Below are positions 15,830 through 50,154 of a stretch of DNA of 64,000 nucleotides, one piece after another. Origin of the DNA: a virus (lineage: Duplodnaviria; Caudoviricetes); IMG/VR virus record IMGVR_UViG_3300014208_000039, positions 1 to 64,000 of that record; one strand, given 5' to 3'. The notes under the pieces are model-generated. The model made no database searches. It saw only the letters and a program-made list of their open reading frames with translations, and was not told where the DNA came from. The translations under genes were made by a program, and so were the position numbers. Positions within the stretch are counted from its first letter, which is position 1. Every line of letters starts with the position of its first letter.

Positions 15830-15853
15830 TATTTATATAAAAATAAAACTGTT

Positions 15854-16057
15854 ATGAATGATATTAAATTAAAAAAAGGTTTGGACAACTATTTAAAACC
15901 AACGATAACAAAATCTGTTTCAGAAGATGGAATGGAATCTGAACAATGTGATTTAGAAACTGGCGAATGTTATACTATTCGTTCAGTAGATGGAATAGTA
16001 GAAAGAATAAATAAAAGATACATTACCGATGATGGTAGACAATTATTACAAGATTAA
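15854..16057 (+). CDS. Small hypothetical protein
   Basis: 67-aa ORF preceded by TATTTATA (15830); CDLETGEC motif. Confidence 0.65.
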   Translation: MNDIKLKKGLDNYLKPTITKSVSEDGMESEQCDLETGECYTIRSVDGIVERINKRYITDDGRQLLQD

Positions 16058-16059
16058 TT

Positions 16060-16731: not shown

Positions 16732-16761
16732 AGTTTAACATAAATATTTTAAAAATAATAT

Positions 16762-16790
16762 AAGCCGGACTTTTTATTTCGGCTTTTTTT
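16762..16790 (+). terminator. Rho-independent terminator ending the tail/hub operon
   Basis: Stem AAGCCGGA / TTCGGCTT followed by a T run. Confidence 0.75.
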
Positions 16791-16830
16791 ATGTATATTT
16801 TGAATATAAATAAATTTAAATTTTAGTTTT

Positions 16831-17694: not shown

Positions 17695-17703
17695 AATGAT
17701 TAT

Positions 17704-17750
17704 AACGCATGGACAGACGCATAGTACTTTTGTCCATGCGTTTTATCTTT
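17704..17750 (+). terminator. Rho-independent terminator after ssb
   Basis: 12-bp stem AACGCATGGACA / TGTCCATGCGTT followed by a T-rich tract. Confidence 0.7.
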
Positions 17751-17795
17751 AAAAATTGTGGTTGTATAACCATTAAAAATTATTAAAAATAGAAA

Positions 17796-18785: not shown

Positions 18786-18826
18786 AATTATAGAAAGCAC
18801 GTTGTTTAACATAAAAATTTTGAAAA

Positions 18827-19846: not shown

Positions 19847-20288
19847 TCAAGAATCAACTAAATTTGAATTTTTGTTAACTATGGATGGTAATATTGTAGT
19901 ACAAAGATTTTTCTTTGTAAAAGATTATAATCCGAATGTTAAAAAATCGTTAGATTTACATGAATGTGTATCGAATATTTGTATAGATATCGAAGACGAT
20001 CTAAGAAAAAAAACATTTGAATATCTTACCGAAAATCAAAACTTTTTATCATTTACAGATGGCGTGGAAGAAGAACGAGACACATCAACAGAACAATTTT
20101 TAATTGAAATTAAGCAAAATAACGATGTATTTATCCAGAGATCGTTTCCTGCTTATGTATATCATCCAAAAGTTAGGTATACTGTTGATATAAGGCCAAA
20201 AATTAAGGTAATATTATCATCATTAACCGACACTTTGTCACTTACTGAGCTTCAAACGTCATATTTACAATATGATTTAACAAAATAA
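19839..20288 (+). CDS. Hypothetical protein in the replication block
   Basis: 149-aa ORF tightly coupled to both neighbours; no motif recognised. Confidence 0.6.
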   Translation: MNNQESTKFEFLLTMDGNIVVQRFFFVKDYNPNVKKSLDLHECVSNICIDIEDDLRKKTFEYLTENQNFLSFTDGVEEERDTSTEQFLIEIKQNNDVFIQRSFPAYVYHPKVRYTVDIRPKIKVILSSLTDTLSLTELQTSYLQYDLTK

Positions 20289-20289
20289 T

Positions 20290-21711
20290 ATGAAAGAAAT
20301 TAATTTCGGATATTTAGGAACAACGTTTCAAGAAACATTAATTAAAGCGATAATTGAAGATAAAAAATTTGGTGACACTATTGTTGGTGTAATTGATAGT
20401 AAGTATTTTGATAATAATTCCTTTAGATATATAATGGAAAATATTAAAGAAATACATATGGACTACAATCGTATTCCAGATTATCTTGATATTTCACAGA
20501 AAATTATGTCGGAGGGTAAAGAAGTAAATTCAGGCCGAATCCATATTGATACCTTAGAAAATATAAAAAATAACGAACAAAATCCAGACACCGTAAAAGA
20601 TAGAGCCTTAAATTTTTGTAAACAACAAAATTTAAAGAAAGAGCTTAAAATTGTCCAAAGTATCATTGATAACGGTGAGTTTGAAGAATACGGAAAAATC
20701 GAAGGAATTATACAAAAGGCACTTCAAGTAGGTGTAATGGACGAAGACGCAACTGACGTTTTTTATGATATTGATTCTGCCTTAGAAAAAGACTTCAGAG
20801 AACCAATACCAACTGGTATTATTGGTTTAGATAATTTATTAAAAGGTGGGTTAGGTGTTGGTGAATTAGGTGTTGTCCTAGCCCCGACAGGAACTGGTAA
20901 GACAACATTATTAACTAAATTTGCAAATACAGCTTTTAATGTTGGTAAAAATGTCTTACAAATCTTCTTTGAAGACAATAAAGATGTTATTAAAAGAAAA
21001 CATTATACTATTTGGTCAGGTATTGCTCCAGATGATCAACCAGATAATAAGGATATTGTTAAGGAAAGAATTCATGATGCCGAGTCATCAACAAAAGGGG
21101 AATTAAGGTTATTAAAATTACCAAGTAGCAGTAAAACGGTTACCGATATTAAAACAATAATTAGAAAAATGAGATCCGAAGGATTTAAAATGGATTTAAT
21201 TCTTATTGATTATGTAGATTGTATTGTACCTGAAAGGAGTAGTTATGGCGAAGAATGGAAGGGAGAGGCATCAATTATGAGAACAATTGAAGCTATGACT
21301 GATGAATTTGGTGTTGGTATATGGGTGGCAACCCAAGGTAACAGGGAATCTATAGCATCTGAAGTTGTTACCACTGATCAAATGGGTGGTTCTATTAAGA
21401 AAGCTCAAATTGGTCATGTAATTGTATCTGTTGGTAAAACATTAGAACAAAAAGAACATAATTTAGCTACATTAACATTATTGAAATCACGTATTGGTAA
21501 AGATGGGGTTGTATTCTCCAATTGTACATTTAATAATGAATTTATTATTATTGATACCGATACTCAAAGCACACTACTTGGTATCAAGGAAGATAAGGCA
21601 AATGAAAAAGTTATTCGTCAACGTGAAGCTTACGAAAGAAGACAAAGGATGAACGGAAACCCTGCAAATGTTAATCCAAATCAAGGAATCGAACCAAATT
21701 TAAATGGGTAA
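20290..21711 (+). CDS. dnaB: Replicative DnaB-like helicase (T4 gp41-like)
   Basis: Walker A LAPTGTGKTT, LILIDYVD, WVATQGNR, LLKSRIG. Confidence 0.92.
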   Translation: MKEINFGYLGTTFQETLIKAIIEDKKFGDTIVGVIDSKYFDNNSFRYIMENIKEIHMDYNRIPDYLDISQKIMSEGKEVNSGRIHIDTLENIKNNEQNPDTVKDRALNFCKQQNLKKELKIVQSIIDNGEFEEYGKIEGIIQKALQVGVMDEDATDVFYDIDSALEKDFREPIPTGIIGLDNLLKGGLGVGELGVVLAPTGTGKTTLLTKFANTAFNVGKNVLQIFFEDNKDVIKRKHYTIWSGIAPDDQPDNKDIVKERIHDAESSTKGELRLLKLPSSSKTVTDIKTIIRKMRSEGFKMDLILIDYVDCIVPERSSYGEEWKGEASIMRTIEAMTDEFGVGIWVATQGNRESIASEVVTTDQMGGSIKKAQIGHVIVSVGKTLEQKEHNLATLTLLKSRIGKDGVVFSNCTFNNEFIIIDTDTQSTLLGIKEDKANEKVIRQREAYERRQRMNGNPANVNPNQGIEPNLNG

Positions 21712-21784: not shown

Positions 21785-24700
21785 ATGGACGTATCACAAA
21801 AAATACTTTCAGATTTAACGGTGTATATGAAATATGCAAAGTATATTCCAGAACTGAACAGGAGAGAAACATGGGACGAAATCGTAACCCGAAACATGAA
21901 AATGCATATTAAGAAGTACCCACATATTGAGAATGAAATCAGAGAGGTATATAAGATGGTGTATGATAAAAAAATCCTACCATCAATGAGATCTATGCAA
22001 TTTGGTGGAAAATCAATTGAAATTAGTCCAAATAGGATTTATAATTGTGCTTACCAACCAATCGATCATATTGACGCATTTGGGGAAACTATGTTTCTTC
22101 TTCTAGGTGGAACTGGCGTTGGATATTCTGTACAAAAACATCATGTGGAAAAATTACCAGAAATAAGAAAACCTAGTTCAGCAAGGAATAGACGTTATCT
22201 TGTTAGTGATAATATCGAAGGATGGGCGGATGCTATTAAAGTTTTAATGAAATCTTATTTTGGATATTCATCATCAACACCTATTTTTGATTTATCAGAT
22301 ATTAGACCAAAAGGTGCATTATTGGTAACTTCAGGTGGTAAAGCACCTGGACCTCAACCGTTGAAGGATTGTATTCATCATATTGTAAAACTTTTGGAAA
22401 CTAAACAAGACGGGGAAAAACTCGAACCAATTGAAGTTCACGATATTATATGTTTTATTGCTGACGCAGTTTTAGCAGGCGGCATTCGTAGAGCAGCATT
22501 AATTTCATTATTCAGCGCCGATGACAATGAAATGATTGCATGTAAAAGTGGTCAATGGTGGGAAACAAATCCACAAAGAGGTAGAGCAAACAATTCGGCT
22601 GTCCTATTAAGACACAGAATTACCAAAGAATTCTTTATGGATATTTGGAATCGTGTTGAAGCATCAGGTGCAGGTGAACCTGGAATTTATCTTACTAACG
22701 ATAAAGATTACGGAACAAACCCATGTTGTGAAATTGCTTTAAGACCAAATCAATTCTGTAACCTATGTGAAGTAAATGTTTCAGACATCGAATCACAGGA
22801 AGAATTAAATGAAAGAGTTAGAGCAGCTGCATTTGTTGGAACATTACAAGCTGGTTATACTGACTTTCATTATTTAAGGGAAGTTTGGAAAAGAACAACA
22901 GAAAAAGAAGCGTTAATAGGTGTATCTTTAACAGGTATCGGTTCAGGTAGAATTTTAAACTTCGATACCAAACAAGCTGCTAAGATTGTAAAAGAAGAAA
23001 ATGCTCGTGTAGCTGAAATGATTGGTATAAATAAATCAGCAAGAACAACAACTGTTAAGCCTAGCGGATGCAGGCCTCATGATGCGTTAACAACCACAAA
23101 TGACGGTATTTATACTTTAGATGAATTATTTAATGATCATATAGACAATAAAACTTGGTGTGATTTTAATAAGAATGTTTCAGTTATTCAAGACAATAAA
23201 ATTAATAAAATTAATAAAACATTTAATAATGGTGAAGATGAAGTGTTTGGAATTGAATTAGAGGGACAATTATTATTAGAATCGACAAAAGACCATCCTT
23301 GGTTCATTAATAAAAATTATAAAAATAAAAAATACATTAATATTAATACGTTTGTAAAAACAAAAAATATAAAAAAAGGTGACATCGTTGATATTAAACT
23401 TGGCGTATACGACAAAGAAGAAAGTTTATCTCTTAAAAAAATCAATATGTTTAGATTTAAAATGAAACATAATACATTAAGAGAAATAACCCAGCCTGAA
23501 AAAGTTGATGAGGATTTAAGTTGGTTAATTGGTTATTTATGGGGTGATGGTTCATTATCAGAAAGTAAATATAGATTAAGTTTTGTCGATGAACATATTT
23601 TTAATTTAGAAAAAGCCCAAAGAATTATTAAAGAAAAATTTAATTTATTTAATAATATAATAAAATGTAAGGACAGAAACGCATATTCACTATCAATTTC
23701 ATCTGTCGAATTATATCATTGGTTATCATCTAACGATATTAGAAAATATTCAAATAATGGATTAGATTATATACCGTTAATTATTAGGCGTTCTAGTTGG
23801 AAAGATATAATCGCTTTTATTGCGGGATTTAGTGATGCTGATGGTTGTATTTCATTAAAATCAAATAAAATACATAAATCTGTAATCATATCTCAATCTG
23901 GAAATTCAGGATTTACAAGACATTTACAGAATGTTGCTTTATCAGTTGGTATTCATTTAAACCATTCTTATAATATTAAAGGAGATTCCTTTCAAAAAGA
24001 AAAAAATATTATACTAATGTCATCCACGCATTTCAGTTTAAAAAAATCAATGGATGTTTTTGATAAAAATTCTGAAAAGTCAAAAAGAAAATATCCTGAT
24101 CTAGAATTTGGTCATAATGAAAATGGTAAACCGAATCAAATTTTAGGTAAAGTAAAAAATGTTAAATTTTTAAGAAATGATAATACTTATGATATTGAAA
24201 TTGATAATGAACACTGGTATTATGCGGGAGCAATAAAATCTCATAATACCGCATCATTAGTTTTAGGAACAGCAAGTGGTATTCACGCTTGGCATAACGA
24301 TTATTATATTCGTAGAGTAAGGGTAGGTAAAAATGAATCAATTTACACATATTTGTCAATTTATCATCCTGAACTTTTAGAAGACGATTTTTTCAGACCA
24401 CATGACACTGCTATTATTTCTGTTCCACAGAAAGCACCTGAAGGCTCAATTTTAAGAACTGAAAGTCCGTTACATTTATTGGAACGTATTAAATATATTT
24501 CACAAAATTGGATTAAACCTGGTCATTCAAGTGGAGCAAATACACACAATGTATCAGCAACAGTAAGTTTAAGGCCCGAAGAATGGGATACTGTCGGTGA
24601 ATGGATGTGGGAAAACAGAAATTTCTACAATGGATTATCCGTTTTACCCTATGATACGGGGTCTTATAAGCAACCTCCTTTTTCTGACTGTACGGAAGAA

Positions 24701-24823
24701 GAGTTTAACGAATTAAGTTTAAAGTTGCATAATATCGATTTATCAAAAGTTATTGAAATGAATGATAATACCGATTTAAGAGGTGAATTAGCGTGCAGCG
24801 GAAATAATTGTCAGATTACATAA
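21785..24823 (+). CDS. nrdJ: Class II (adenosylcobalamin-dependent, monomeric type) ribonucleotide reductase containing an intein
   Basis: LPSMRSMQFGG, NCAY, GGTGVGYSV, GGIRRAALIS, TNPCCEI, FCNLCEV, TTVKPSG/TASL, C-terminal CSGNNC; no NrdB gene nearby. Confidence 0.88.
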   Translation: MDVSQKILSDLTVYMKYAKYIPELNRRETWDEIVTRNMKMHIKKYPHIENEIREVYKMVYDKKILPSMRSMQFGGKSIEISPNRIYNCAYQPIDHIDAFGETMFLLLGGTGVGYSVQKHHVEKLPEIRKPSSARNRRYLVSDNIEGWADAIKVLMKSYFGYSSSTPIFDLSDIRPKGALLVTSGGKAPGPQPLKDCIHHIVKLLETKQDGEKLEPIEVHDIICFIADAVLAGGIRRAALISLFSADDNEMIACKSGQWWETNPQRGRANNSAVLLRHRITKEFFMDIWNRVEASGAGEPGIYLTNDKDYGTNPCCEIALRPNQFCNLCEVNVSDIESQEELNERVRAAAFVGTLQAGYTDFHYLREVWKRTTEKEALIGVSLTGIGSGRILNFDTKQAAKIVKEENARVAEMIGINKSARTTTVKPSGCRPHDALTTTNDGIYTLDELFNDHIDNKTWCDFNKNVSVIQDNKINKINKTFNNGEDEVFGIELEGQLLLESTKDHPWFINKNYKNKKYININTFVKTKNIKKGDIVDIKLGVYDKEESLSLKKINMFRFKMKHNTLREITQPEKVDEDLSWLIGYLWGDGSLSESKYRLSFVDEHIFNLEKAQRIIKEKFNLFNNIIKCKDRNAYSLSISSVELYHWLSSNDIRKYSNNGLDYIPLIIRRSSWKDIIAFIAGFSDADGCISLKSNKIHKSVIISQSGNSGFTRHLQNVALSVGIHLNHSYNIKGDSFQKEKNIILMSSTHFSLKKSMDVFDKNSEKSKRKYPDLEFGHNENGKPNQILGKVKNVKFLRNDNTYDIEIDNEHWYYAGAIKSHNTASLVLGTASGIHAWHNDYYIRRVRVGKNESIYTYLSIYHPELLEDDFFRPHDTAIISVPQKAPEGSILRTESPLHLLERIKYISQNWIKPGHSSGANTHNVSATVSLRPEEWDTVGEWMWENRNFYNGLSVLPYDTGSYKQPPFSDCTEEEFNELSLKLHNIDLSKVIEMNDNTDLRGELACSGNNCQIT
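23069..24247 (+). mobile_element. Intein (393 aa) with LAGLIDADG homing endonuclease in nrdJ
   Basis: Inserted at KPSG|C...HN|T. Starts CRPHDAL; block B ESTKDHPW; LAGLIDADG motifs WLIGYLWGDGS and FIAGFSDADGC; ends YDIEIDNEHWYYAGAIKSHN. Confidence 0.93.
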
Positions 24824-25980: not shown

Positions 25981-26430
25981 ATGGCAACATACGGTATAGA
26001 TTTCCCATTTAGGGATAGTTTAAAAGGAGACTTCCTTAATATGACTCAAACACCTGAAAGAGAGGTTCGAGCCGACTTAATACATTTACTTTTAACAAGA
26101 AAAGGAACAAGATATTTTTTACCCGATTTTGGTACAAGATTATATGAATATATTTTTGAACAAAATGATTCAGTTAGTTTTAGTTTAATTGAAGAAGAAA
26201 TCAGGGAAAGTATAAGAAAATACATTCCAAACTTGGATATAAACAGTATTGAAGTAATGTCAGCGGAAGACGATCCAGATGAGTCACAAAGTTTTTCACA
26301 GGATGAAGACGAAAGATTATTTAGGGTATCAGACGCTTCAACTAAACCATACACAGCTAAAGTAAAAATCGACTATACTGTTAATAACGGAGCATTTTCG
26401 TCTTCGGATTTTATAATAATAAACATTTAA
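25981..26430 (+). CDS. Baseplate wedge subunit gp25-like (GPW/gp25 family)
   Basis: GIDFPF..EVRADLIHLLLTRKGTRYFLPDFGTRLYEYIFE..IRESIRKYIP. Confidence 0.9.
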   Translation: MATYGIDFPFRDSLKGDFLNMTQTPEREVRADLIHLLLTRKGTRYFLPDFGTRLYEYIFEQNDSVSFSLIEEEIRESIRKYIPNLDINSIEVMSAEDDPDESQSFSQDEDERLFRVSDASTKPYTAKVKIDYTVNNGAFSSSDFIIINI

Positions 26431-26431
26431 T

Positions 26432-28264
26432 ATGAGTAAGAGAATTAGTTATTCGGTTAGAGATTTTGCGGGGTTAAGACAAGAACTTGTCAATATGACA
26501 AAGGAATATTATCCCGATTTGGTTAAAAATACCAATGATGCTTCAATATTTTCAGTATTATTAGACCTAAACGCTGCGGTTTCTGATAACTTACACTTTC
26601 ATATTGATAGGGTTTGGCAAGAAACTATGTTAGACTTTGCACAACAAAGACAATCATTGTTTCACATTGCAAAAACATATGGATTACGAATTCCTGGGTT
26701 AAGACCGTCAGTTGCGTTATGTGATTTTTCAATAAATGTGCCTGTTAGGGGGGATAAAGACGATATGCGTTATGAAGGTATTCTAAAAGCGGGGGGTCAA
26801 ATATCGGGCGGAGGGCAAACTTTTGAAACAATGGAAGATATTGACTTTGCCAATCCATTTAACAGTAAAGGCGAACCAAATAGATTGAAAATACCTAATT
26901 TTGATGTTAATAACAGGTTAATTTCATACACTATAACCAAAAGGGAAGCTGTAGTCAATGGTGTAACAAGAATTTACAGAAGGTCTATCAACGAACTTGA
27001 CCAGAAACCTTTTTTAAAAATTTATCTTCCTGAACAAAATGTGTTAGGTGTCACATCTATCATTCATAAAGACGGAACATCGTTTGGATCGAACCCAACA
27101 TCATCAGAATTCACTTCAACAACGAATAAATGGTATGAAGTTAAGTCATTGATACAAGATAAAGTATTCGTTCCTGATCCAACTAAAATTTCCGATAAAG
27201 AAAATTTTAAGCCAGGTACATATCTTGATGTGAACAATAAATTTATCACGGAGTACACTCCAGAAAATTACTTTTTAATTACTTTTGGATCAGGAACCGT
27301 TAATCCAATGGAAAATGTGGATAATTATATTACTGATAAATTAAAAGTAAATTTAGCATCTTATCTAAATAATATGTCCCTAGGTGCAATACCTAAAGCC
27401 AACACAACTTTGTTCATAAAATATAGAATTGGTGGTGGAAAATCTTCTAATTTAGGTGTAAATGTTATTAATAGTGTCGACAATATCGAGTTAAATATAA
27501 TGGGGCCGGTGCAAAATGTTAATTCTCAGGTGGTAAACTCAATTAGGGTATCAAATGTGACACCCGCTATAGGCGGAGCTGATCAACCTTCAATTGATGA
27601 TATTCGGGCAATGATTGGATACAATTTTGCTGCACAAAATAGAGCGGTTACGTTGAACGATTATAAATCCCTTATTGAAAATATGCCATCACAATTCGGA
27701 GCGCCAGCTAAAGTAAATGTAATGGAAGAAGATAATAAAATTAAAGTAAAAATGTTATCTTACGACGAAAATGGTAATTTAACTACGGTTGTGTCAAACA
27801 TTCTAAAAAACAATATTGTTGATTATTTATCAGAGTATCGTATGATAAATGACTATTTGGATATTGCCAGTGGTGAAGTTATTGATTTAGGATTTGAAAT
27901 TGATATAGTTTCAAATAGAAATGAAAACGACACAGAAATTATTAAAACTACAATTGACACAGTTATTAATTTAATGTCAATTAATAAAAGAAAAATGGGT
28001 GATCCATTATTTATTGGCGATATGTATAGAGAAATTGGTAATATTCCAGGAGTTGTGAACGTAGTGGATATTCGTGTGTTTAATAAAATTGGTGGAGAAT
28101 ATTCAACAAATGAATCGGCTCAGTCATATAGTAATGAAGAAACTAGACAGATTTTAGATCAAGATAAAATCATTTATATGAAGTCTAATCAGATATTCCA
28201 AGTTAGATTTCCTAATAAAGATATAAAGGTAAGGATAAAAAATTTGACTTCGACTACATTTTAA
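26432..28264 (+). CDS. Baseplate wedge subunit (T4 gp6 / baseplate J-like)
   Basis: RDFAGLRQEL, AQQRQSLFHIAKTYG, YRIGGGKSSN, AIGGADQPS, AQNRAVTLNDY. Confidence 0.88.
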   Translation: MSKRISYSVRDFAGLRQELVNMTKEYYPDLVKNTNDASIFSVLLDLNAAVSDNLHFHIDRVWQETMLDFAQQRQSLFHIAKTYGLRIPGLRPSVALCDFSINVPVRGDKDDMRYEGILKAGGQISGGGQTFETMEDIDFANPFNSKGEPNRLKIPNFDVNNRLISYTITKREAVVNGVTRIYRRSINELDQKPFLKIYLPEQNVLGVTSIIHKDGTSFGSNPTSSEFTSTTNKWYEVKSLIQDKVFVPDPTKISDKENFKPGTYLDVNNKFITEYTPENYFLITFGSGTVNPMENVDNYITDKLKVNLASYLNNMSLGAIPKANTTLFIKYRIGGGKSSNLGVNVINSVDNIELNIMGPVQNVNSQVVNSIRVSNVTPAIGGADQPSIDDIRAMIGYNFAAQNRAVTLNDYKSLIENMPSQFGAPAKVNVMEEDNKIKVKMLSYDENGNLTTVVSNILKNNIVDYLSEYRMINDYLDIASGEVIDLGFEIDIVSNRNENDTEIIKTTIDTVINLMSINKRKMGDPLFIGDMYREIGNIPGVVNVVDIRVFNKIGGEYSTNESAQSYSNEETRQILDQDKIIYMKSNQIFQVRFPNKDIKVRIKNLTSTTF

Positions 28265-36681: not shown

Positions 36682-37970
36682 AAATAATATAGAAATTATA
36701 ACTTTTCTATATTATTTAGATATTTATAAATATGAAGTTAGTTGAACAACATATTTTCCATAAAACCAGTAATAGATTTAAATCTTTAGATAACATCTGT
36801 TTTTTATCAAAAAACTTATATAATTCGGCGTTATACAGAATAAAAAACGATTTCGATTCTAACGGAAAATGGTTAAGATATAATGAATTAGAAAAAGAAT
36901 TTAGAACATCGGATCAAAAAGATTATATTTCTTTACCTAACAATTCTTCGCAACAAATTCTAATGCTACTTGATTCAAACCTTAAATCCTATTTTAAGGG
37001 TTTAAAATCATTTAAAAAATCTAAAACATCTTTTAGTGGTTGTCCGAAATTTCCTTTTTATAAACATAAAACAAAAGGAAGAAATATAGTTGTTTTTACG
37101 TCAGTTCAATTTAGATTTAAAGATAATAAAATTTTCTTTCCAAAAAAATCAGGTATTTCGCCATTATCAACAAAATTATCCAAAGACAGTAAAATACAAC
37201 AAGTACGTGTTATACCTAAAAACGATTTATACGTAATTGAAATTGTTTATAATTTCCAAGAAAAAATTAATTTAAATAAAAATAATGAATATTTGTCCAT
37301 AGATTTAGGAATTAATAATTTAGCTTCATGTATAACAACGAAAGATGATATACCGTTTATTATAAACGGTAAACCGTTAAAATCAATAAATCAATATTAT
37401 AATAAAAAGAAGTCATATTATCAGAGTAAATTAGAATTAAATAATAAAAAGAAATGTAGTAAAAGAATCACAAAATTAACAAATAAAAGGAATAATAAAA
37501 TTAATGATTATTTACATAAGTCCAGTAAATTAATCATTAATTATTGTAAAGAAAACCAAATTGATAATTTGGTCTTAGGTAAAAATATAGGCTGGAAACA
37601 GGAAGTTAAATTGGGTAAGAAGAACAATCAGAATTTTGTTCAGATTCCGTTTAATAAGTTTGAGTCGTATCTAAGTTATAAGTGTATTAAGGAAGGAATA
37701 AACTTTTTATTAAGAGAAGAAAGTTATACATCAAAAGCAAGTTCATTGGATATGGATTTTATTCCAAATTTTGATTCAAAAGAAGATCATATTTTTTCGG
37801 GAAAAAGAATTAAAAGAGGGTTATATAAAACTTGTGATGGAACGTTACTTAATGCGGATATTAATGGAAGTATTAATATATTAAGAAAAGAAATTGGGGA
37901 CGATTGGTTAAAACCAATAATACTCAATAGAGGGTTCGTGGTTAACCCAATAAAGGTGTCACCTTTATAA
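36682..37970 (+). mobile_element. Non-autonomous IS1341-like element (tnpB with terminal hairpins)
   Basis: 14-bp left hairpin AAATAATATAGAAA / TTTCTATATTATTT (36682-36717); right hairpins GGGTT..AACCC (37932-37948) and ATAAAGGTG-T-CACCTTTAT (37950-37968). Exact ends uncertain. Confidence 0.6.
36732..37970 (+). CDS. tnpB: IS200/IS605-family TnpB RNA-guided endonuclease (no tnpA)
   Basis: LSKNLYNSALY, RuvC-I LSIDLGINNLA, INGKPLKSINQYYNK, DYLHKSSK, NFVQIPF, REESYTSKAS, RuvC-III LNADINGSINILRK. Confidence 0.92.
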   Translation: MKLVEQHIFHKTSNRFKSLDNICFLSKNLYNSALYRIKNDFDSNGKWLRYNELEKEFRTSDQKDYISLPNNSSQQILMLLDSNLKSYFKGLKSFKKSKTSFSGCPKFPFYKHKTKGRNIVVFTSVQFRFKDNKIFFPKKSGISPLSTKLSKDSKIQQVRVIPKNDLYVIEIVYNFQEKINLNKNNEYLSIDLGINNLASCITTKDDIPFIINGKPLKSINQYYNKKKSYYQSKLELNNKKKCSKRITKLTNKRNNKINDYLHKSSKLIINYCKENQIDNLVLGKNIGWKQEVKLGKKNNQNFVQIPFNKFESYLSYKCIKEGINFLLREESYTSKASSLDMDFIPNFDSKEDHIFSGKRIKRGLYKTCDGTLLNADINGSINILRKEIGDDWLKPIILNRGFVVNPIKVSPL

Positions 37971-38009: not shown

Positions 38010-41000
38010 ATGGTAGTAAGAAAAAAAGTTCCAAGTCAAGCGGCTAGTGGTGCAGATACTTTCAGCGACAGTTTAGTTGGTAGACAAGTAACGGACGGTA
38101 CTAGTGAGTTAACCAACACGAATTTTGAATTAGATAGGGTTTTCCCTGAAAAAGATAGCAAGAATTTTAGGTCTGCAGCTTTCTCGGAATTTTTAACGCT
38201 CGATGATTTAAAACTTGAAAGTGATGCTGTTAGTACGACTGACAACGAACAAGATGACAATAAAATCAAATTCAAACAATCCAAGGATAACGGAAGTAAA
38301 TCGATATTTGGTTCATTAAAAAGTAGAATCAATGTATCAATTAATCGAATCATTACCAAATTCCCTGCTGCGGTACTTGCCGACTCGGAAACGTCAGTTA
38401 GAACAAACATCTACACTGCGTCAGGAATTACATATGATATTGAATCAAATACAACTGAATTTTATTTAGAGTCGTCAATTCTTTATAACCCATTCGGAAT
38501 TTTATTAACAACACCTTCAGGTAATCCGGATATAAATTCGGATAATCCAATTAGAAATTTCTATTCTTCATATACAAAATATGTTATAGAAATCACAGGT
38601 AGTACATATGACGTTTTAGAATATACTGAACCTACCAGTTCAAACCTAATTAAATTAAAAGTTAAGGGTAATCCTTTTCAATCAAATACAACATATACTG
38701 AAAGTTATCTTATTAGACCTAATAACGGAATTTCAGAAGGATTTTTCAAAGGTTTAGATGACTTAGAACAGGTAATATTAAATAGGGATACAAATCCTAT
38801 ATACAATGCAACATTTAGAATTCCACAAGATAGTTTTGACCAATCTAAAACAAATTTAGTTGAAGTCAGGGTTAATTGGCCTGTTGCAAAAGATAATTGG
38901 AACATAAAAATACATGGTATCGACTATATCAATTATGTTGATAAAATCGGTAGTATTGCTGATGAAATTGATGATTATAAATCTAACTTATTCGTTAGGT
39001 TTATGACTGCACCCCAATTATTTGAATTTGATAGTGATGATCAAAAAGCTCAAGCTGTTTTTCAATTATATGGTCAAAGTTTTGATAGGGTAAAAAAATA
39101 TATTGATAATATTGCGTTTATGCGTAATGTTAGTTATGACGGTATTGAAAATTTACCAGATATTTTATTGAAAAATCTTTCAACAACATTAGGTTTTGAA
39201 ACTATTAATCTAACTGAAAACACAACTATTGACGATTTACTATATAAAAAACAGGATAATACCTTCTCAGGATTATCGATTGGTAGTAATATAATTGATG
39301 GCGAATATGAGTTTTACAGAAGATTATTAGTAAATTTGGCTTATCTGTATAAATCAAAAGGTACTCGTCAATCAATCGAATTTTTTTTACGTTTCATTGG
39401 TGCACCAGAACCGATGATAAAGTTTAATGAGTATACATATAAAATTAAATCGTACCCAAAATCATATAATCTTGAAAAAGACATTTATGATGTTATTGCG
39501 GGAACTAAATCAACCACAATAGCGGAGTTCAACCCAACAGGATACACATATAGCACGGTAACAACAACCACTTCAATAAATTTAACAAGGGAAGAATACC
39601 CTGTTATTGAATATACAAACACGCCAAGGTCATTTTATAGTAACACATATGAAATGTTCTTCCAAAAAGGAGCTGGATGGTATGAATCAACATTAGGCCA
39701 TCGTTCAAGTGATATTCTTGACGAAGAAAATTCGGTTCTTACTGGTAGAACTAAAACGTTAAAAACTAAATCAAGTGATTTTACATTTGGTGAAGATTAT
39801 TTTGACGCGTATAGGACTTTACCTGGGTTAGATACGGGTTATGAAATTGAATCATCGGTTGATAATATTAAAGGTATCGTTAGTGATATTATTCCTAACG
39901 ATATGTTTAATAGAAAAAATATTAGTGTGTATATTACATCGGCAAATGCTGTTGATTATGATATATATAGAAAATCTAGAGATTTATCGATATCCTTTGG
40001 ATCAGCAACTTTATTACCACAAACAGGTGTAACATTTGCTGAATATGCCGACAGAATTTTACATGAACAAATTACAAATTCTAATACGATAAAATACACA
40101 AAGAATTACATCAAATTAGAAGACATTTATAGGGATTATATCAATAGTACAGGATTTACACCATATTACTTAGGCGATCTTAATGAGTTTGTTAATTTAA
40201 TGGGGACAAATTGGTCAAAATTATTAGATCAAATTATTCCATCAAGTACTTTATGGACGGGTGGTAATCTTATCGAAAATAATAGATTTGGAAGACCAAA
40301 ATATCAATATCGTTTAGGTTGTCAACCAAAAGAATTTAATGAAGATGTTTATCCGGATTTTCAAACAACAATTGAAGAAGATATTGAAAATTTAGTTGGG
40401 GATATTAATAATTTTAGGGGATTATCTCAATTAACTGGAGTGAGCTTTTATCCTGTTATTGAAATTGATGGTGAAATTTATCCTAAAAGCGGTGATACAG
40501 ATAATTTTAAAATAAATATTACAAGCGGTGATCTATTCAATGGATTTTCGTTAAATACTTGTAATCCAGTCAATCAAGATAATCTTCCATTAGTGTGTGA
40601 TTATAAACTTACTTTGGATATCGATTATGATTTAATCAAATTACAATGGAAACAAAAATTAATAGATTTAATTGATTATATTAATAATATTACAACGGGT
40701 TATACTGCTGGGTATTATAATTATCAACCATTTTTAAATGCATCGGGTATCGGCCCAACAACATTAACACCAACTGGAATTCCTAAATTAAACTATGAAT
40801 TCTATACTGATATTAACGGTATAGAAAAAATTAAATTTACTTCTATCAAATATAGTACTAACGAATGTTCTGTTTTAGAATATTTTGATTATAGATTTAC
40901 TAGTGAATTCGATACAATTAAAAATGTGTGTTCAATTGACGCTACTATTCAATCTGAAGGTAGTCATTATTCGGGTGGAACAGGTAGTACATTATGTTTA

Positions 41001-44000
41001 TTAAATAATGATATCTATTTCAATTTTAACGGAGTTGGACCAATTACTATCTTTGGAACTTGTAACCCAACACCAAATCCTACAACCGTTTCAGGTAAAA
41101 CGTTGGATTATTATGGTTGTACGTTTGTTTTAAGAGACGTAAATGAAAATGATAAAATTGATTTATTATTTACCGATATAACCAATTGTGATTTAAAGAT
41201 AAAAGTTGAAGGATTAGGTATAAATTGGATAAATAGTGATGAATATGTTATAGTACCTAAAGTACAATATAGGCAATCTTATGATTACGGTTTAAAAAAC
41301 GACTCATATGTTTTAGTGAGTGGAATGACTATTACATCAAAGATGGTAGATCAATTAGTTGTGGGTGATGTTATTCTTATGTATGACTATAATAGTAATT
41401 ACATTAGTAACCAACTATTAAAAGATGGAATTACAAATAACGATTTATCGTTTATAAGACAATATGTACCGAAAACAATTTCAGACATAGATTGTTTAGC
41501 TTCAAACAAAAAATATATAATTAACGGAAATATTGAAGTTCTACCAACTAGTAAAATGTTTGTTTATACTAAACAATATGTAGATATAGATGGTAATGTT
41601 TCCGATAATGGTAGTTATTTCTTTGATTATAGATTTCCAGAATATTTAAAAATTAGAACAACAGGTACAACCGATAATTCATGTTGTGGTGAGAGTAATA
41701 TTAATAATGGGGATTATTTAATTGGTTCGGATGGTAAGATGATTGAAATTCTCACTTTGGAATTAGATTATTGTGATTCAGAACTTTATTATAATATTAA
41801 TGTAACCGACGATTCAGGTTTAGAATTTTTAACCGTATTTAACGGAATGATAACAGGTACAACAGTAATGATTGGACATAATTATGTACCATTTACTACA
41901 ATGGACGAAGAGTTATCACAAACATATGATAACGGTTCTTGTGTTGTTACTGATCCTGATAGAAATTATATAATTCCATGTACAGGTACACCTATTGTAA
42001 ATTGTGATATTGTCGGATTTGCACTATGGGTCGATAATGTCCCAACTCCTACACCGACTCACACTCCAACATTAACGCCAACATCAACCCCAACACCAAC
42101 ATCAACCCCAACTTCCACCCCTACATTGACACCAACATATACAACAACACCAACGTTAACTCCTACACATATTGTAAACTGTTTAATAGATGGTTATGCA
42201 GAATTTATGAACCCAACGCCAACACCTACCCCAACTATAACCACAACATCCACACCTACAATTACACCACAACCAACAGAAACAGCAACTCCGACTCCAA
42301 CGACAACATCAACAACAACATTAACACCAACGTCTACCCCTACATTGACGCCAACAAATACTCCGACTTTAACTCCAACTCAAACATATACACCTACTTT
42401 AACGCCAACGGTAACTGGCGCCCCTGTCTATACCTGTGACACCGAAATACCAACATGGATTGAAGGTGAAAATTACGGTAAAGTAATTGTTATTTTAGGC
42501 CCTGAAGAGGGTATGGTGACATTTGATTATGAACCTGTTATTATTAAAGATAATTTTATTATAACAGATGAAAATGGTAATTATTTAACTAGCACTGGAT
42601 TTGTTGGAGATAGTGGAACTACACAATTCTGTAAAACAAGTGGATATACATATGTGTTTGTGGAAGTATTACCAGAGGTACCAATTGGATCAATTTGGAA
42701 ATTTAAATTAAGTTGCCCAACTGGACCATGTACAACTGCAGCACCAGTACCAACACAAACTCAGACTCCAACATTAACAAATACACTTACACTTACCCCA
42801 ACATTAACGCCAACAAATACGCCTACTGTAACTAGTACTCCTACCCCTACGCCAACATTAACAGCAACACAAACTCCAACATTAACACAAACCTTAACAT
42901 CAACCTTAACATCAACGCCAACCCCAACAAATACACTTACGTCAACTTTAACGTCGACCCCAACTCCAACTCTAACATCTACGCCAACTCTAACATCTAC
43001 ACCTACTCTAACATCTACACCTACGCCAACATTAACGCCAACGCCAACACTAACTCCAACATTGACACAAACCCTTACACAAACCCATACACAAACAAGT
43101 ACGAGAACACCCACTCACACATCTACGCCAACCAGGACAAGTACTTCAACGTTAACTGCCACTCATACTCCAACATTAACGCCCACGTTAACTCTTACAT
43201 CTACTCCAACATTAACGGCTACATTAACTTCAACGCTCACACAAACAATTACAGGTGGACTAACACCCACACCAACTTCAACTCCTACAATTACGCCGAC
43301 TTTAACTGAAACGCCAACATCTACACCAACATTGACGTCAACATCTACACCAACTATGACGCCAACTATGACGCCAACTTTAACATCAACAAATACGTCA
43401 ACATTAACGCCAACAAATACACCTACTGTAACTAGTACTCCTACCCCTACGCCAACATTAACAGCAACACAAACTCCAACGTTAACGCAAACCTTAACAT
43501 CAACCTTAACATCAACGCCAACACAAACTATTACAGAAGGATTAACACCTACGCCTACATCAACACCAACGACTACGCCAACTCTAACGCCTACTTTAAC
43601 ATCTACCCCCACACTAACAATTACCGCGACAAACACATCTACCACAACACCTACTTTAACACCAACCCTAACACCTACTTTAACACCAACTCAAACATAT
43701 ACCCCAACAAGAACTGGAACGCCAACACCCACGCCAACAAGAACAAGTACTCAAACACCAACGTTAACGCCTACCCTTACACCTACCCTTACACCTTCAG
43801 CCACAGCAGTAATAGAATTTTTGGCGGCATTTGCCCTCGATAGTCTTACATGTGAAACTACAGATATAGCGGATGATCCACCAACGATTGTTTTGAATTC
43901 AGTAACAAATAGTGGATATAATTATATGGAATCAGTAAGTGAAATAACATATAATGGCGACCCAACTGAAATATTATCAAGAGGTATTTATCTTGGAACA

Positions 44001-44453
44001 AATAATCCGCCAACTGAAAGTGATAGAGTAACAACCGATGGTTCGGGTCCTGGTAAATATAATAGTAAAATAAATGATTTAGCATGTAACACTAAGTATT
44101 ATGTTAGAGCATATGCAATTACCGCATCGTATGATACAATAGTTTCAAATATTATGACCTTTACTACGCCGGCAGCAACAATATTTATTCCAGAAGCATT
44201 TTCACCAAATGGTGATAACATTCACGATACTTGGATGGTTTATGGCTTAAGTAGTTATTGTAATAATAACAATGAAATGTTTATATTCAACCAACCTGGC
44301 GAACAAGTATTCCATTCAACATCTTATCATCTTAATTGGTGGAACGGTAAAGTAAATAATACAGGATCATTGGTTCCAGTAGGAACATATTATTATGTGT
44401 TCTATCTTAACGGATCAAGATATAAATCGGCAACGGTATTCGTTAGTTATTAA
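38010..44453 (+). CDS. Giant baseplate wedge/fibre protein: wedge (gp7 / P2 gpI-like) region, Hint-like domain, Thr/Pro stalk, FN3, type IX secretion type B C-terminal domain
   Basis: [39 protein letters not shown] wedge motif; Hint-like 41289-41882; T/P tracts about 42040-43805; FN3 43878-44168; [29 protein letters not shown] 44181-44450. Confidence 0.75.
42040..43805 (+). repeat. Thr/Pro low-complexity tandem repeats ([12 protein letters not shown]), including a 124-bp direct repeat
   Basis: Three T/P tracts. 42799-42922 and 43399-43522 are identical except for 3 synonymous A/G differences; offset exactly 600 bp. Confidence 0.95.
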
Positions 44454-45390: not shown

Positions 45391-48300
45391 ATGTCAAGTG
45401 TAACGATAAATTTAAATAGTACTGATTATAATTCAACTAAACCTAGTTATGGTTCAGTAGGACAATATGCCACAAATCTTAGATTTGCTAATAAATCCAA
45501 AGCATTGAAATTTACTAATGCCGATTATGGAATTGCAACCGTAACAATAAGTTTTACTGGATCAATAGATTATGGATCGGTATATTTTTCTGATCCAAAT
45601 GGCGGGGATGTGTCGGTATCAAAAAACATTGATGGAATTTATATGGTTAGTAATGAAATAGCCAAAATTGAAAATATTTTTTATCAAAACGGAACAGGTG
45701 GCACCACTACTTATTATGTTATTATTAATTCAAATACTTCATTAAAATCAGCCGAATTAAATGTATCAGTTGCACTTGGAAAATACAATACAAAACCTTC
45801 AGGAACTAGTTTTACTATAAATTGCTCTTGCCAAGACCCAATTTATACATACACAACTGGATTACACACATATTCACCTTATGATGCTAAAAGTGATTTA
45901 TCAAAACTTACAACTATTTTATATTCACGAGTTCCAATAGGATCGTGGACACCTGGTACTAAAGTTTATTGTACTAATACATTTAGTCATCCAGCTTTGC
46001 CATATTTTTATGGATACGGGGCAAATGTTTATCAAGTCGGTGATGAAATCGATAGATCATATGGTACTAAAAAACAATATACGGTTAAGAAAAAAATATT
46101 CGGTAAGCCTAAAACAACTGAGCAAACAATAATAGGAAATACATTCAATTTAACCAATCAAACGTCAGAAGCGTGTGTTGTTCCATCAATGAGTAGAGTT
46201 GGACAAATAACGAACATATTATCCGCATCTTCATTAATACAACCATCACAATATAGATATTATTTAGGATATAATTCTACAAATAAACAACAATCAAATG
46301 ATAGCGTGTTTACTACATATGATTTTGGAACAAAACAACATAATCCGATAACTGGCGCACTTCATGCGTTAGAGAAAGTGACGCAAGGGGTTATTGTTGG
46401 TTACAATACAACTTGGGACCCAAATATTTGGTCTGCCGTTGCAGGTGGTGCTTTAGGATTAGGAGCAGTAATAGCACTGGCTGAGGGTACTGCAATTAAT
46501 GCAGCTGCGGGTTTATTATTGGACTATTTAATAGGTATATTATCCGATACATGGATTGGCGCAGCAATTACCGCCGCACAAGGAATTCCAGTATGGGGTC
46601 AAATTGCTTTTTTAGTTGTTGCATTACTTGCATTATTATGGGGTATACTTAGAACTAAAACAACTGTTTATAGGGAAGACTGTAAATTATTTTTACATCA
46701 TTTTACCGATACACCGTATATCGAATTAACAAGTAAATTATATAGGGATGAAGATTTAACTGTTCAAAATAATGGGTATTATTGTGATGGAGTTTATTTC
46801 TTTGAACAAACAGGTATTGGAACAGGTAAAACTATAACATCGAAAGAATTATCTTCATGTTACACAACTATTTCAACAAACCCAACTAAATATGGAACAT
46901 TATATTCATTACAAGCCGATAACCCAACGTTAGTGACAAATTTTCAAAAGCTAATTGTTTTATTATATGAATCGGGTAAACCGTCACCTTATTGTGGTGG
47001 GGATAATGTATATTATAGTAGTTATATGTCGCAATACGTAACAGGAAAAACTTGTTGTGATTTGGAGGTTTGTAATTCATATTTAATTGAGTTTGACGCT
47101 GGATTAGAATGGAGTTGTATTAGTGTTGCTGACGCAAATAGTAAAGTTACACCTAAGTTTAATGCTGCAGCATCTTATGCGCAAAGTCAAGGAAATTTTA
47201 ATACATTATTAACAGACGCCGACTTAGGTGAGTTACCATCATATTTTACACATGAATTAAAGGTAGAAAACACACCAACTCAAACAAGCTTTTATTATGA
47301 TAAAAGAATAAATACTAATCCAGATGTCGGTATGTCAATATATTACGATCCTTGTGGATGTACTAAAGTATTAGACGGTTATTATGGTATAACAGGTATA
47401 ACATATTATAGAACATTTTATCATACTACTAATGGAGCTATCGATGGAATTTATTACATGTCCACGTCAGGAAGTACTACTACCACTACTTTAGAACCAA
47501 TTATATTAACAAATTTAAATTATACAAGTAATTGGTTTTTAAAAGGCTCAAATAATGTACTTTTACAATATTATACAGATAATATTGAATTGGATAGGTT
47601 ATTTAATCCAAATTCCTTGTATACTAATCCGATGCTGGTTAAAGGGTTTATTAATGATCTAACAAGTTTAGATGATTTTAAAAGATATACGGGAACAACT
47701 GAATCACAAAGTACTGAAGCCGATACGGGTTGGTATAGGCCATTAATCGACTGGATTGAACCGTTACCGTTCTATTACAATAAAACACAAACGATAACAT
47801 TGAATACTGAAGAAGTATGTGATTTTATGGTTAGTGGATCAACACTTAGAGGATTTAATATTGTTGGGGTTGACGCTGATTTATTAGAAACGCCAACACA
47901 TAATGTAGTTAACTTAACAGTTAATGTGTATAGTAATACAGGATTAACTGCGACATATATTTGTGATACTTTACCTTCAGATTCAAAAACATTTATTCCG
48001 TTTGATGTACAAGTTGGATCAACTGAAGATGTTACAGGTATTACAATTTCATCAATCAATTCAACTAATCCCATAAATAAAACCACATACGCAATCGGTA
48101 CGTTTACTGATTGCGATTTAACAGAATATAATTTACCGACAGTAACAATTAGTTCACCACTAACATTTGTATCAGAGGCAATGGCCACCGCAACGGGTAA
48201 TGTAACAAATGATGGTGGTGCCGTTGTAACAGACAGAGGATTTGTTTGGGGGACAAACAGTGGAGTGACATTATCCGACTCATTTACTAATTCAGGTAAC

Positions 48301-50154
48301 GGAACAGGAATTTTTTCAGGTAACATAACACAATTATCTGGAAATACAACATATTATGTAAGGTCGTACGCCACAAACATTAAAGGTACATCATATAGTA
48401 ACGAAATTACATATGTATATAATATTCCGACTCCTACACCGACATCAACTCTTACATCTACGCCAACATTAACACCTACATTAACATCAACACCCACAAC
48501 ATCAGTTTGTATTGAAGAAGTTGTTGTATACGGAGCTTTGTATAATTTTTATGCAGTTCTTGATTCTAGGAATATAGCAAATATAGGATGGCATATTTCT
48601 GCCTATGCCGATTTGCAGACAATGGTTGCTTATTTAGGGTCTACTACTGCCGGACAAAAAACTAAAGAATCCGGAACATTACATTGGCAGTCTCCAAATA
48701 CAGGGACAAACATAGCCTTATTTAATGCAAGAGGGGCTGGAACAAGGGCTACAGATGGTACCTTTGGTAGTTTGTTACAGTATTTCCAAATATGGCATTC
48801 TACAGCATATGATGCAAGTCATGGGGCCACTTCGTGGTGGACTTCTGGTAGTAATTCTATTACGTCGGCTATTAATTTTGCTGGATATCCGTATAAGCAA
48901 GGTATGAGTTTGCGTCTTGTCAAAGATTTTACAACCTTATCTGATGGTCAAACTGGAACTTATATAGGTAATAATGGTAAAGTTTACAGGACTATTTGTA
49001 TAGGTACACAGGAATGGTTAGCGGACAGCCTAAACGAGACTAAATACCAAAATGGAGATTGGATCACTGGATATGATGGAGGAGTTTATACTCCAATCTC
49101 GAACGCAACTTGGGCCGCACTAACTACAGGAGCTATGTCCTATTATAATGATGATGTAAATAATGGAAGTATATTGCAACCTTGTCCTACACCTACACCC
49201 ACGCCAACTTTAACGGCTACATCTACGTTAACACCCACTTTAACAAACACACCTACGTTAACTGAAACTCCCACATTAACGCCAACGTTAACCCTAACAG
49301 CAACTCCAACGTCAACTCAAACACCTACGTCAACTCAAACTAGTACTCCAACATCAACTCTTACATCTACGCCTACTCCTACAATGATATCACAATGTTT
49401 TAATATTGGAACCGGATTTAGTAGTACTGTTTATTCAATAGATGTTCAAACCGATGGTAAGATATTGGTTGGAGGATCTTTTACATCGTATTCAGGTGTA
49501 ACATCAAATTATATAATAAGGTTAAATAGTGATGGATCAATTGATACTGGATTTACAATTGGAACAGGATTTAGTTCAACAACACTATCTATATATGTTC
49601 AGCCAGATGGTAAGATATTGATTGGAGGGAACTTCATAACATATTCTGGCGTAACATCAAATTATATAATAAGGTTAAATAGTGATGGATCAATCGATAC
49701 TGGATTTACAATTGGAACAGGATTTAATGCTGCCGCACGTTCTATATATGTTCAGTCTGATGGTAAGATATTGGTTGGAGGATCTTTTACATCGTATTCA
49801 GGTGTAACATCAAATAGGATAATAAGGTTAAATAGTGATGGATCAATTGATACTGGATTTACAATTGGAACAGGATTTAGTTCAACAACATATTCTATAT
49901 ATGTTCAGTCTGATGGTAAGATATTGGTTGGAGGGAACTTCACAACATACTCAGGTGTAACATCAAATTATATAATAAGGTTAAATAGTGATGGATCAAT
50001 CGATACTGGATTTACAATTGGAACAGTAATTACTAATAGTGTTTCTTCTCTTAGAATTCAGACAGATAATAAGATATTGGCTGTTGGTGTGTTCACAACA
50101 CCAAATAGGATAATAAGATTAAATAGTGATGGAACTACTGATAATTGCATATAA
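45391..50154 (+). CDS. Tail fibre / adhesin-like protein: hydrophobic segment, FN3, T/P linker, permuted FISUMP domain, T/P linker, delta-60 (DUF5122) repeats
   Basis: FN3 LPTVT..DGGAVVTDRGFVW..TTYYVRSYATN (48133-48420); FISUMP halves YGALYNFYAV..SLRLVKD and GKVYRTICIGTQEWLA..YYNDD (48529-49155); VQTDGKILVGGSF..IIRLNSDGSIDTGF repeats. Confidence 0.75.
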   Translation: MSSVTINLNSTDYNSTKPSYGSVGQYATNLRFANKSKALKFTNADYGIATVTISFTGSIDYGSVYFSDPNGGDVSVSKNIDGIYMVSNEIAKIENIFYQNGTGGTTTYYVIINSNTSLKSAELNVSVALGKYNTKPSGTSFTINCSCQDPIYTYTTGLHTYSPYDAKSDLSKLTTILYSRVPIGSWTPGTKVYCTNTFSHPALPYFYGYGANVYQVGDEIDRSYGTKKQYTVKKKIFGKPKTTEQTIIGNTFNLTNQTSEACVVPSMSRVGQITNILSASSLIQPSQYRYYLGYNSTNKQQSNDSVFTTYDFGTKQHNPITGALHALEKVTQGVIVGYNTTWDPNIWSAVAGGALGLGAVIALAEGTAINAAAGLLLDYLIGILSDTWIGAAITAAQGIPVWGQIAFLVVALLALLWGILRTKTTVYREDCKLFLHHFTDTPYIELTSKLYRDEDLTVQNNGYYCDGVYFFEQTGIGTGKTITSKELSSCYTTISTNPTKYGTLYSLQADNPTLVTNFQKLIVLLYESGKPSPYCGGDNVYYSSYMSQYVTGKTCCDLEVCNSYLIEFDAGLEWSCISVADANSKVTPKFNAAASYAQSQGNFNTLLTDADLGELPSYFTHELKVENTPTQTSFYYDKRINTNPDVGMSIYYDPCGCTKVLDGYYGITGITYYRTFYHTTNGAIDGIYYMSTSGSTTTTTLEPIILTNLNYTSNWFLKGSNNVLLQYYTDNIELDRLFNPNSLYTNPMLVKGFINDLTSLDDFKRYTGTTESQSTEADTGWYRPLIDWIEPLPFYYNKTQTITLNTEEVCDFMVSGSTLRGFNIVGVDADLLETPTHNVVNLTVNVYSNTGLTATYICDTLPSDSKTFIPFDVQVGSTEDVTGITISSINSTNPINKTTYAIGTFTDCDLTEYNLPTVTISSPLTFVSEAMATATGNVTNDGGAVVTDRGFVWGTNSGVTLSDSFTNSGNGTGIFSGNITQLSGNTTYYVRSYATNIKGTSYSNEITYVYNIPTPTPTSTLTSTPTLTPTLTSTPTTSVCIEEVVVYGALYNFYAVLDSRNIANIGWHISAYADLQTMVAYLGSTTAGQKTKESGTLHWQSPNTGTNIALFNARGAGTRATDGTFGSLLQYFQIWHSTAYDASHGATSWWTSGSNSITSAINFAGYPYKQGMSLRLVKDFTTLSDGQTGTYIGNNGKVYRTICIGTQEWLADSLNETKYQNGDWITGYDGGVYTPISNATWAALTTGAMSYYNDDVNNGSILQPCPTPTPTPTLTATSTLTPTLTNTPTLTETPTLTPTLTLTATPTSTQTPTSTQTSTPTSTLTSTPTPTMISQCFNIGTGFSSTVYSIDVQTDGKILVGGSFTSYSGVTSNYIIRLNSDGSIDTGFTIGTGFSSTTLSIYVQPDGKILIGGNFITYSGVTSNYIIRLNSDGSIDTGFTIGTGFNAAARSIYVQSDGKILVGGSFTSYSGVTSNRIIRLNSDGSIDTGFTIGTGFSSTTYSIYVQSDGKILVGGNFTTYSGVTSNYIIRLNSDGSIDTGFTIGTVITNSVSSLRIQTDNKILAVGVFTTPNRIIRLNSDGTTDNCI
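49408..50142 (+). repeat. Delta-60 beta-propeller repeats, 153-bp period, four full units plus one partial
   Basis: Units start at 49408, 49561, 49714, 49867 and 50020; near-identical at DNA level. Confidence 0.92.

Follow-up and report, generated by a model that had tools for sequence, protein, structure and literature searches.

Hint domains are, to our knowledge, known almost solely as single-turnover self-processing enzymes, namely inteins, BIL domains, hedgehog proteins and pretoxin-HINT domains. The residues involved in intein splicing are Cys or Ser at position 1, Thr B:7, His B:10, the F:4 residue (Asp, or Cys in class 3), His F:13, His G:6, Asn G:7 and a nucleophile at position +1 (PMC4031507). 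BIL domains, which are active in cleavage or splicing, keep Cys1 and the TxxH motif, and those of type A also the terminal His-Asn (PMC4031507); for polymorphic toxin systems, HINT is counted among the releasing proteases (PMC3482391). Here, we describe a Hint-like domain at amino acids (aa) 1094-1291 of a giant protein encoded in the baseplate/tail-fibre module of a virus, on the first 64 kb (hereafter the window) of the 74.8-kb IMG/VR record IMGVR_UViG_3300014208_000039, for which completeness was estimated at 22%. The initial annotation of the window had proposed that this degenerate domain could cleave itself and thereby free the C-terminal part of the protein. From a predicted structure and the comparison of homologues we consider it probable that the domain is dead as an enzyme and persists in a structural role, as an end-piece or junction, with the chain intact at residue 1291.

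An AlphaFold2 model of aa 1040-1345, based on a 29-row alignment, had a mean predicted local distance difference test score (pLDDT) of 82 and a predicted template modelling score of 0.75. The pLDDT was 86-97 across most of the Hint domain, with a dip to 58 in the Cys1224-Cys1225 loop, the tail past aa ~1300 was disordered, and all five models were alike in confidence. A Foldseek search of the PDB returned BIL domains, inteins and hedgehog at E-values of 3e-5 to 1e-2, and almost nothing else. BIL domains (2lwy and 6y75/6tmm) were among the best structural matches, with Z-scores of 13.5-14.1 and root mean square deviations (rmsd) of 2.5-3.1 Å over 134-143 residues; with VIA-align, Tetrahymena BIL2 (6y75_B) superposed on the model at Z 14.1 and rmsd 2.5 Å over 137 of 150 residues, the C. 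thermocellum BIL (2lwy) reached Z 13.8, and many mini-inteins as well as the hedgehog Hint domain scored Z 12-13. Furthermore, ranks 1-32 of a Foldseek-independent search of 48,161 representative PDB chains were all taken by Hint domains (intein, BIL, hedgehog, Vint) with Z from 13.9 to 4.5, whereas rank 33, at Z 2.8, covered only the hairpin region that precedes the domain.

In superposition, class 1 inteins share both the fold and the terminal boundaries of the tail-protein domain. Intein residue 1 corresponded to model residue 55, which is Gly1094, in more than 15 alignment rows, and the last intein residue to model residue 251 (His1290) in most rows, such as those of Mtu RecA 440, Ssp DnaE 159, Npu DnaE 137, gp41-1 125 and PI-PfuI 454, or to residue 252 (Asn1291) in a few. 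At the C-terminal end the register is uncertain by ±1, and His1290 may occupy the position of the terminal Asn instead of Asn1291. The structure prediction agrees with the initial annotation in giving a Hint fold at aa 1094-1291, and since the intein ends align to Gly1094 and His1290/Asn1291, the boundaries that it had claimed are right to within one residue. The domain is ~60 aa longer than the mini-inteins; it has an additional helix at aa ~1134-1143 and, at aa ~1209-1235, a Cys-Cys loop that is modelled with low confidence.

The resemblance might in principle be a prediction artefact or reflect convergence on a common beta fold, and this view gains from the low identity to solved Hint domains (8-17%) and from zero sequence-profile support at any threshold. 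No Hint or intein profile matched the segment or the whole protein in Pfam, NCBIfam, phmmer searches of the PDB (E ≤ 10) or PHROGs (E ≤ 1), and the profile check proposed in the initial annotation, with Hint and PT-HINT (PF07591), found no match even at E ≤ 10. Likewise, Pfam assigned no Hint or intein family to any of 29 family members, and hmmsearch with family profiles against PDB sequences recovered no Hint chain, one such search matching only low-complexity Thr/Pro sequence. An artefact would, however, have to account for a pLDDT above 90 over most of the domain, for five models of similar confidence, for 32 consecutive Hint matches before Z falls from 4.5 to 2.8, and for two domain ends that both coincide with intein termini, and we regard it as highly improbable. 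The model thus speaks with high confidence for a genuine Hint fold at aa 1094-1291.

Relatives of the giant open reading frame (ORF) were collected with a word-indexed search, which recovered two full-length relatives, an exhaustive HMMER search, which recovered 30 representative homologues, and a scan of viral contigs with an alignment of the N-terminal core, which found at least 234 related loci, 80 of which were kept. A first viral-contig scan queried with the Hint segment alone returned zero relatives, and tblastn against 50,697 deposited phage genomes gave no match. The distant set used below consists of 25 representatives with a mutual identity of ≤50%, and the close set of 41 unique viral-locus sequences with domain matches above 250 bits, duplicates removed; genomic context was read from the IMG/VR loci.

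The sequence reads as the initial annotation had quoted it, with Gly at the first position, LPTSKM for TxxH and Gly-His-Asn before Tyr1292, which leaves 2147 - 1291 = 856 aa downstream. The losses that it noted, of Cys1 (to Gly), of the block-B His and of the +1 nucleophile (to Tyr), are real, and the first two extend to distant and close homologues alike (Table 1). The F:4 and probably the F:13 equivalent also lack the splicing residues, where block B was assigned by motif and strand order and F:4 by motif, rather than by residue-level superposition. Judged as a class 1 intein, the domain has no Cys, Ser or Thr at position 1, no block-B TxxH, no conserved C-terminal His-Asn and no Cys, Ser or Thr at +1, and no intein-free allele was found, the domain being present in each homologue that has the region. 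The absence of a +1 nucleophile would fit a type A BIL, whereas the lack of Cys1 and of a conserved Asn would not.

Table 1. The giant protein, its Hint-fold domain and nearby genes in window coordinates, with the residues found in the distant and close homologue sets.
Feature	Position	Strand	Remarks
gp25-like gene	25981-26430		Upstream of giant ORF
Baseplate_J/gp6-like wedge gene	26432-28264		Upstream of giant ORF
Giant tail-module ORF P0001	38010..44453	+	2147 aa, no internal stops; conserved core aa 1-~1340, then variable C-terminal cassette
Small beta-hairpin region, aa 1040-1093	41127..41288	+	Precedes Hint fold; three strands, pLDDT 81-85; no fold match above Z 2.8
Hint-fold domain, aa 1094-1291 (predicted)	41289..41882	+	C-terminal limit ±1 residue; AlphaFold2 model and structure searches
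Position 1, Gly1094	41289..41291	+	Aligned to intein residue 1; Gly in 24/24 distant and 41/41 close homologues (65/65)
Block-B equivalent LPTSKM, aa 1178-1183	41541..41558	+	Thr kept, His replaced; inteins have TxxH
B:7-like Thr1180			Mostly Thr in both sets
B:10-like Met1183			Distant Leu/Ile/Val/Phe/Tyr; close Leu/Val; 0 His among 28 + 41 sequences
F:4-like Asn1262			Distant N/H/Q/R/T/S; close N/S/H; never Asp or Cys
F:13-like Leu1274			Close set hydrophobic: L27 V8 I3
His1290-Asn1291-Tyr1292 (CAT AAT TAT)	41877..41885	+	Close set: His and Tyr conserved, middle residue hypervariable
G:6-like His1290			Distant His 12/25; close His 39/39
G:7-like Asn1291			Distant Asn 0/25; close K10 T7 R5 Q3 N3 E3 L2 + P, F, S, Y, D, V
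+1 Tyr1292			Distant Tyr 11/25; close Tyr 39/39
Conserved Cys-containing tail, aa 1292-~1344	41883..42041	+	After Hint fold; from alignments; pLDDT 34-44
Variable cassette	42042..44450	+	Thr/Pro stalks with small Cys spacers, phrog_15511 region aa 1876-2055, CHU_C / T9SS type-B domain aa 2059-2140
1587-aa protein, DUF5122 propeller repeats + Fib_succ_major	45391-50154		Downstream of giant ORF

The proposed autocleavage depends on Asn1291, and here the family argues against it: Asn is found at this position in none of the 25 distant homologues and in 3 of the 39 close ones, the residues that would assist are missing, and relatives that have no cassette keep the domain. The column of residue 1291 is the most variable of its strand. 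Since 8.4% of the core residues are Asn, its occurrence in this column corresponds to the background frequency. The Asn1291 codon is AAT, and the commonest alternative, Lys (AAA/AAG), is a single third-position change away. The three close-set cases are L002 (core 91% identical to that of the query), L003 (72%) and L080, the first two of which constitute the query's own subclade.

A narrower version of the cleavage hypothesis confines it to this subclade (the query, L002 and L003), where Asn1291-dependent cleavage before Tyr1292, aided by His1290, would release or loosen the 856-aa cassette of stalk, fibronectin type III-like domain and type IX secretion system (T9SS)-type C-terminal domain, by analogy with C1A intein mutants or type-A BILs. 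The HN-Y junction occurs in these three proteins and, independently, in L080, all four of which run into Thr/Pro linkers, and the fold ends at this site to within one residue. Moreover, Asn cyclisation can proceed without N-terminal chemistry and BILs with Tyr at +1 exist (PMC4031507). Nevertheless, Asn stands at the background frequency over 64 homologues, Asp F:4, His B:10 and probably also His F:13 are missing, and most structural alignments set the intein Asn on His1290 and not on Asn1291. Uncatalysed Asn cyclisation yields deamidation and not cleavage (PMC4031507). Furthermore, the conserved core extends ~50 aa beyond the site, and it is not obvious what a virion protein would gain by shedding its distal binding modules. 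We therefore judge cleavage in the subclade to be quite improbable.

A dead domain is nonetheless not the reading to which every observation leans, and several weigh against it. A predicted rather than a solved structure underlies the entire argument. The query has His-Asn at or beside the C-terminal end of the fold, and L003, which is 57% identical over the domain, has the same nine residues around it (LGHNYVPFT). Although His is scarce in the giant protein (0.37%), all members of the close clade have it at 1290, which hints at selection on part of the old active-site pocket. Finally, Asn cyclisation takes place without His F:13 or His G:6 in some inteins, and Tyr at +1 is known from a BIL of Magnetospirillum (PMC4031507).

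The sequence beyond the domain bears on the same question. Family conservation runs for ~50 residues past the HN-Y junction, with a Q-Y-Y motif, a conserved Cys and Pro, which means that the core does not end at the proposed cut. Ten complete short forms of the protein (1407-1420 aa) stop ~55 residues past the Hint domain and retain Gly1 and His-x-Tyr, where x is K, R, Q, T or D. The long forms have 2033-2895 aa, and most short forms stop exactly where the long forms enter the Thr/Pro linker. The next gene in most short-form loci, ~100 nucleotides (nt) downstream, encodes a very long Thr/Pro stalk behind a conserved, Cys-containing N-terminal domain of 65 aa. One such split locus is L060, with the core at 9239-13492 and the stalk gene at 13589-21535 (at least 2649 aa); the same arrangement is seen in L052, L055, L075, L079, L033 and L074. 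The domain is thus kept with or without a downstream attachment, which speaks against selection of the domain for cassette release, and a role in such release would not explain why short forms that have no cassette retain it.

The layout described in the initial annotation, a conserved N-terminal core followed by Hint and a variable C-terminal cassette, holds across the family, and the Hint domain marks the end of the invariant core, which is a site of fusion, fission and module exchange. Cassettes of the long homologues carry Laminin_G_3, F5_F8_type_C, LRR_5 and Fib_succ_major (Pfam, among 29 members), all of them modules for binding and none a toxin. The cassette of the 2895-aa homologue in L059 (9248-17932) and L061 contains repeats that share ~50% identity with the DUF5122 propeller region encoded by the gene downstream of the giant ORF in the window, a resemblance which suggests that binding modules move between neighbouring tail genes. 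When the giant ORFs downstream of the short forms were compared with the C-terminal tails of the long forms, only L027/28/32 and L005/6 shared a module, the Thr/Pro stalks being masked as low complexity. In the window, the stretch at 42001-44000 has a guanine plus cytosine (GC) content of 0.41 and a GC skew of -0.47, as compared with ~0.30 and a positive skew elsewhere, which is fully explained by the ACN/CCN codons of the Thr/Pro stalk. The stalk repeats also give rise to spurious minus-strand ORFs at 42761-43114 and 43163-43645.

Three cysteines, Cys1162, Cys1225 and Cys1255 (nt ~41493-41774), are near-invariant in the distant set (22/25, 22/22 and 24/25, respectively) and in the close set (40/41, 39/39 and 38/39). 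None of them is at a known intein catalytic position, and a disulfide or a metal site is possible. A class 3 intein with an alternative Cys nucleophile was considered and ruled out, as the conserved Cys1255 is not at F:4 but 7 residues upstream, in a loop. Together with Thr1180, His1290 and Tyr1292, the cysteines might line a remodelled pocket with a new, non-proteolytic activity, such as a metal or ligand site or the docking of the stalk protein or a baseplate component. Near-invariance of pocket residues despite the loss of the catalytic ones would suit such a function, as would the rarity of His elsewhere in the giant protein, and phages with split genes need something to hold the separate stalk protein. 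Conserved Cys, His and Tyr are, however, equally expected from plain structural roles in disulfides and core packing, and we consider a new activity unlikely. A complex prediction for the Hint domain and tail of L060 with the 68-aa N-terminal domain of the stalk protein encoded by the next gene gave an ipSAE of 0.00, a value that carries no weight either way.

We favor the hypothesis that the Hint fold lost its catalytic activity before the protein family diversified and was kept as a structural module that closes the conserved core of ~1340 aa in this giant baseplate/tail-fibre-module protein. Past this module, relatives either stop, with a separate Thr/Pro-stalk gene next to them, or run via a Thr/Pro linker into swappable binding modules. 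The protein would stay uncleaved at the HN-Y junction, and the domain would provide the distal stalk with a rigid end-piece or junction. On this reading Gly1094, Thr1180, His1290, Tyr1292 and the three cysteines would be conserved for structural reasons, and all but Gly1094 may hold the fold together by disulfides, metal binding or core packing, or might form a docking surface.

Like the BILs, the tail-protein domain is no mobile insertion, has no +1 nucleophile and precedes the variable C-terminal region of a surface-type protein; unlike them, it has an invariant Gly1, no block-B His, an unconserved Asn and no profile similarity. A canonical class 1 intein, which served as a positive control, is found in the same window, in the ORF for a class II (B12-type) ribonucleotide reductase (21785-24823, plus strand), where it comprises 393 aa (aa 429-821; nt 23069-24247). 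Its first residues are Cys-Arg-Pro, TKDH is present, block F reads Tyr-Asp-Ile (Asp F:4) with His F:13 downstream, and the intein closes with Ser-His-Asn before a Thr; in Pfam, LAGLIDADG_3 endonuclease scored above the cut-off and Intein_splicing, at 28.4 bits, below its cut-off of 35.8. Of these features the tail-protein domain has His-Asn alone, and BLASTP detected no similarity between the two.

With pretoxin-HINT (PF07591), the giant protein shares a long structural or repeat-containing N-terminus, a Hint domain and a variable C-terminal cassette. However, its cassette has a stalk, binding-type modules and a T9SS-type C-terminal domain, no immunity gene is evident and the catalytic residues are absent. 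The toxin-like release suggested in the initial annotation finds no counterpart in a cassette of Thr/Pro stalk and binding-type modules, and since this cassette holds no toxin, the analogy with pretoxin-HINT does not carry over. The self-cleaving chaperone domains of the Peptidase_S74 type in phage fibres and spikes are likewise autoprocessing-type domains in tail appendage proteins. They differ in fold and in chemistry (a Ser-Lys dyad), and it is these domains themselves, at the very C-terminal end, that are discarded; Pfam gave no match of this type in the giant protein. Structural matches to the model were also found in BFVD phage proteins, among them A0A6J5MFV5 ("Fibronectin type III"), A0A6J5QMR4 ("Collagen triple helix repeat") and A0A1C3NF88, with Foldseek E-values of 1e-7 to 1e-3. 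These proteins bear labels of the adhesin or fibre type (fibronectin, collagen, PASTA), are not typical intein hosts and showed no sequence kinship to the giant family, and the matches suggest that Hint-fold modules in phage appendage proteins may be commoner than recognised.

The relatives of the giant ORF in the viral-contig scan are located on contigs of 245-334 kb, from which we conclude that the present virus is a jumbo phage, and the hosts of the phages carrying this tail-module family are probably Bacteroidota. The window has a GC content of ~30%. The giant ORF is colinear with homologues of 1396-2895 aa at 44-47% identity, and we assign it to a baseplate/tail-fibre module because of the neighbouring genes (Table 1), to which several unassigned ORFs upstream should be added. 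Its baseplate role is putative, taken from gene position alone, and the name "wedge" is unproven. Directly upstream, inside the structural module, there is a TnpB/OrfB_IS605 gene (36732-37970, plus strand; phrog_506, E 3e-49) with a Cas12f1-like TNB domain. Within the giant ORF, aa 1-1040 had no match in Pfam, PHROG or NCBIfam, and an ESM Atlas look-up of the N-terminal core yielded a sub-threshold lead (0.89) to PF23786. The best-conserved part of the family is aa 250-760 (window 38757-40289), with 57-91% identity in 80 viral loci and many invariant residues, including a K-S-K-G-T motif, and it matches no profile. An AlphaFold2 model of this segment from 17 homologues had a mean pLDDT of 40.6, which is too low for a structure search.

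The Hint fold itself is known, and the novelty lies in a catalytically inert version in a virion protein family that escapes detection by sequence; our searches of the open-access literature brought up no phage tail or baseplate protein described as having an inactive Hint domain. A practical consequence is that autoproteolysis should not be inferred from the presence of an HN dipeptide where a Hint-like fold ends. One genome here supplies a natural pair of an inactive and an active Hint domain, in the tail protein and in the ribonucleotide reductase intein, respectively. If cleavage in the subclade with His-Asn were true, whether as a retained or a regained activity, the phage tail would mature with the help of a Hint domain, and the stalk with its T9SS-type tip would be freed from the baseplate core or held to it only non-covalently. 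If, as we think probable, the domain is dead, a self-splicing fold would have been exapted as a virion building block, stripped of its chemistry and long retained in at least 234 related viral contigs. The end of the Hint domain marks the point at which these phages exchange host-binding modules by recombination, fusion and fission.

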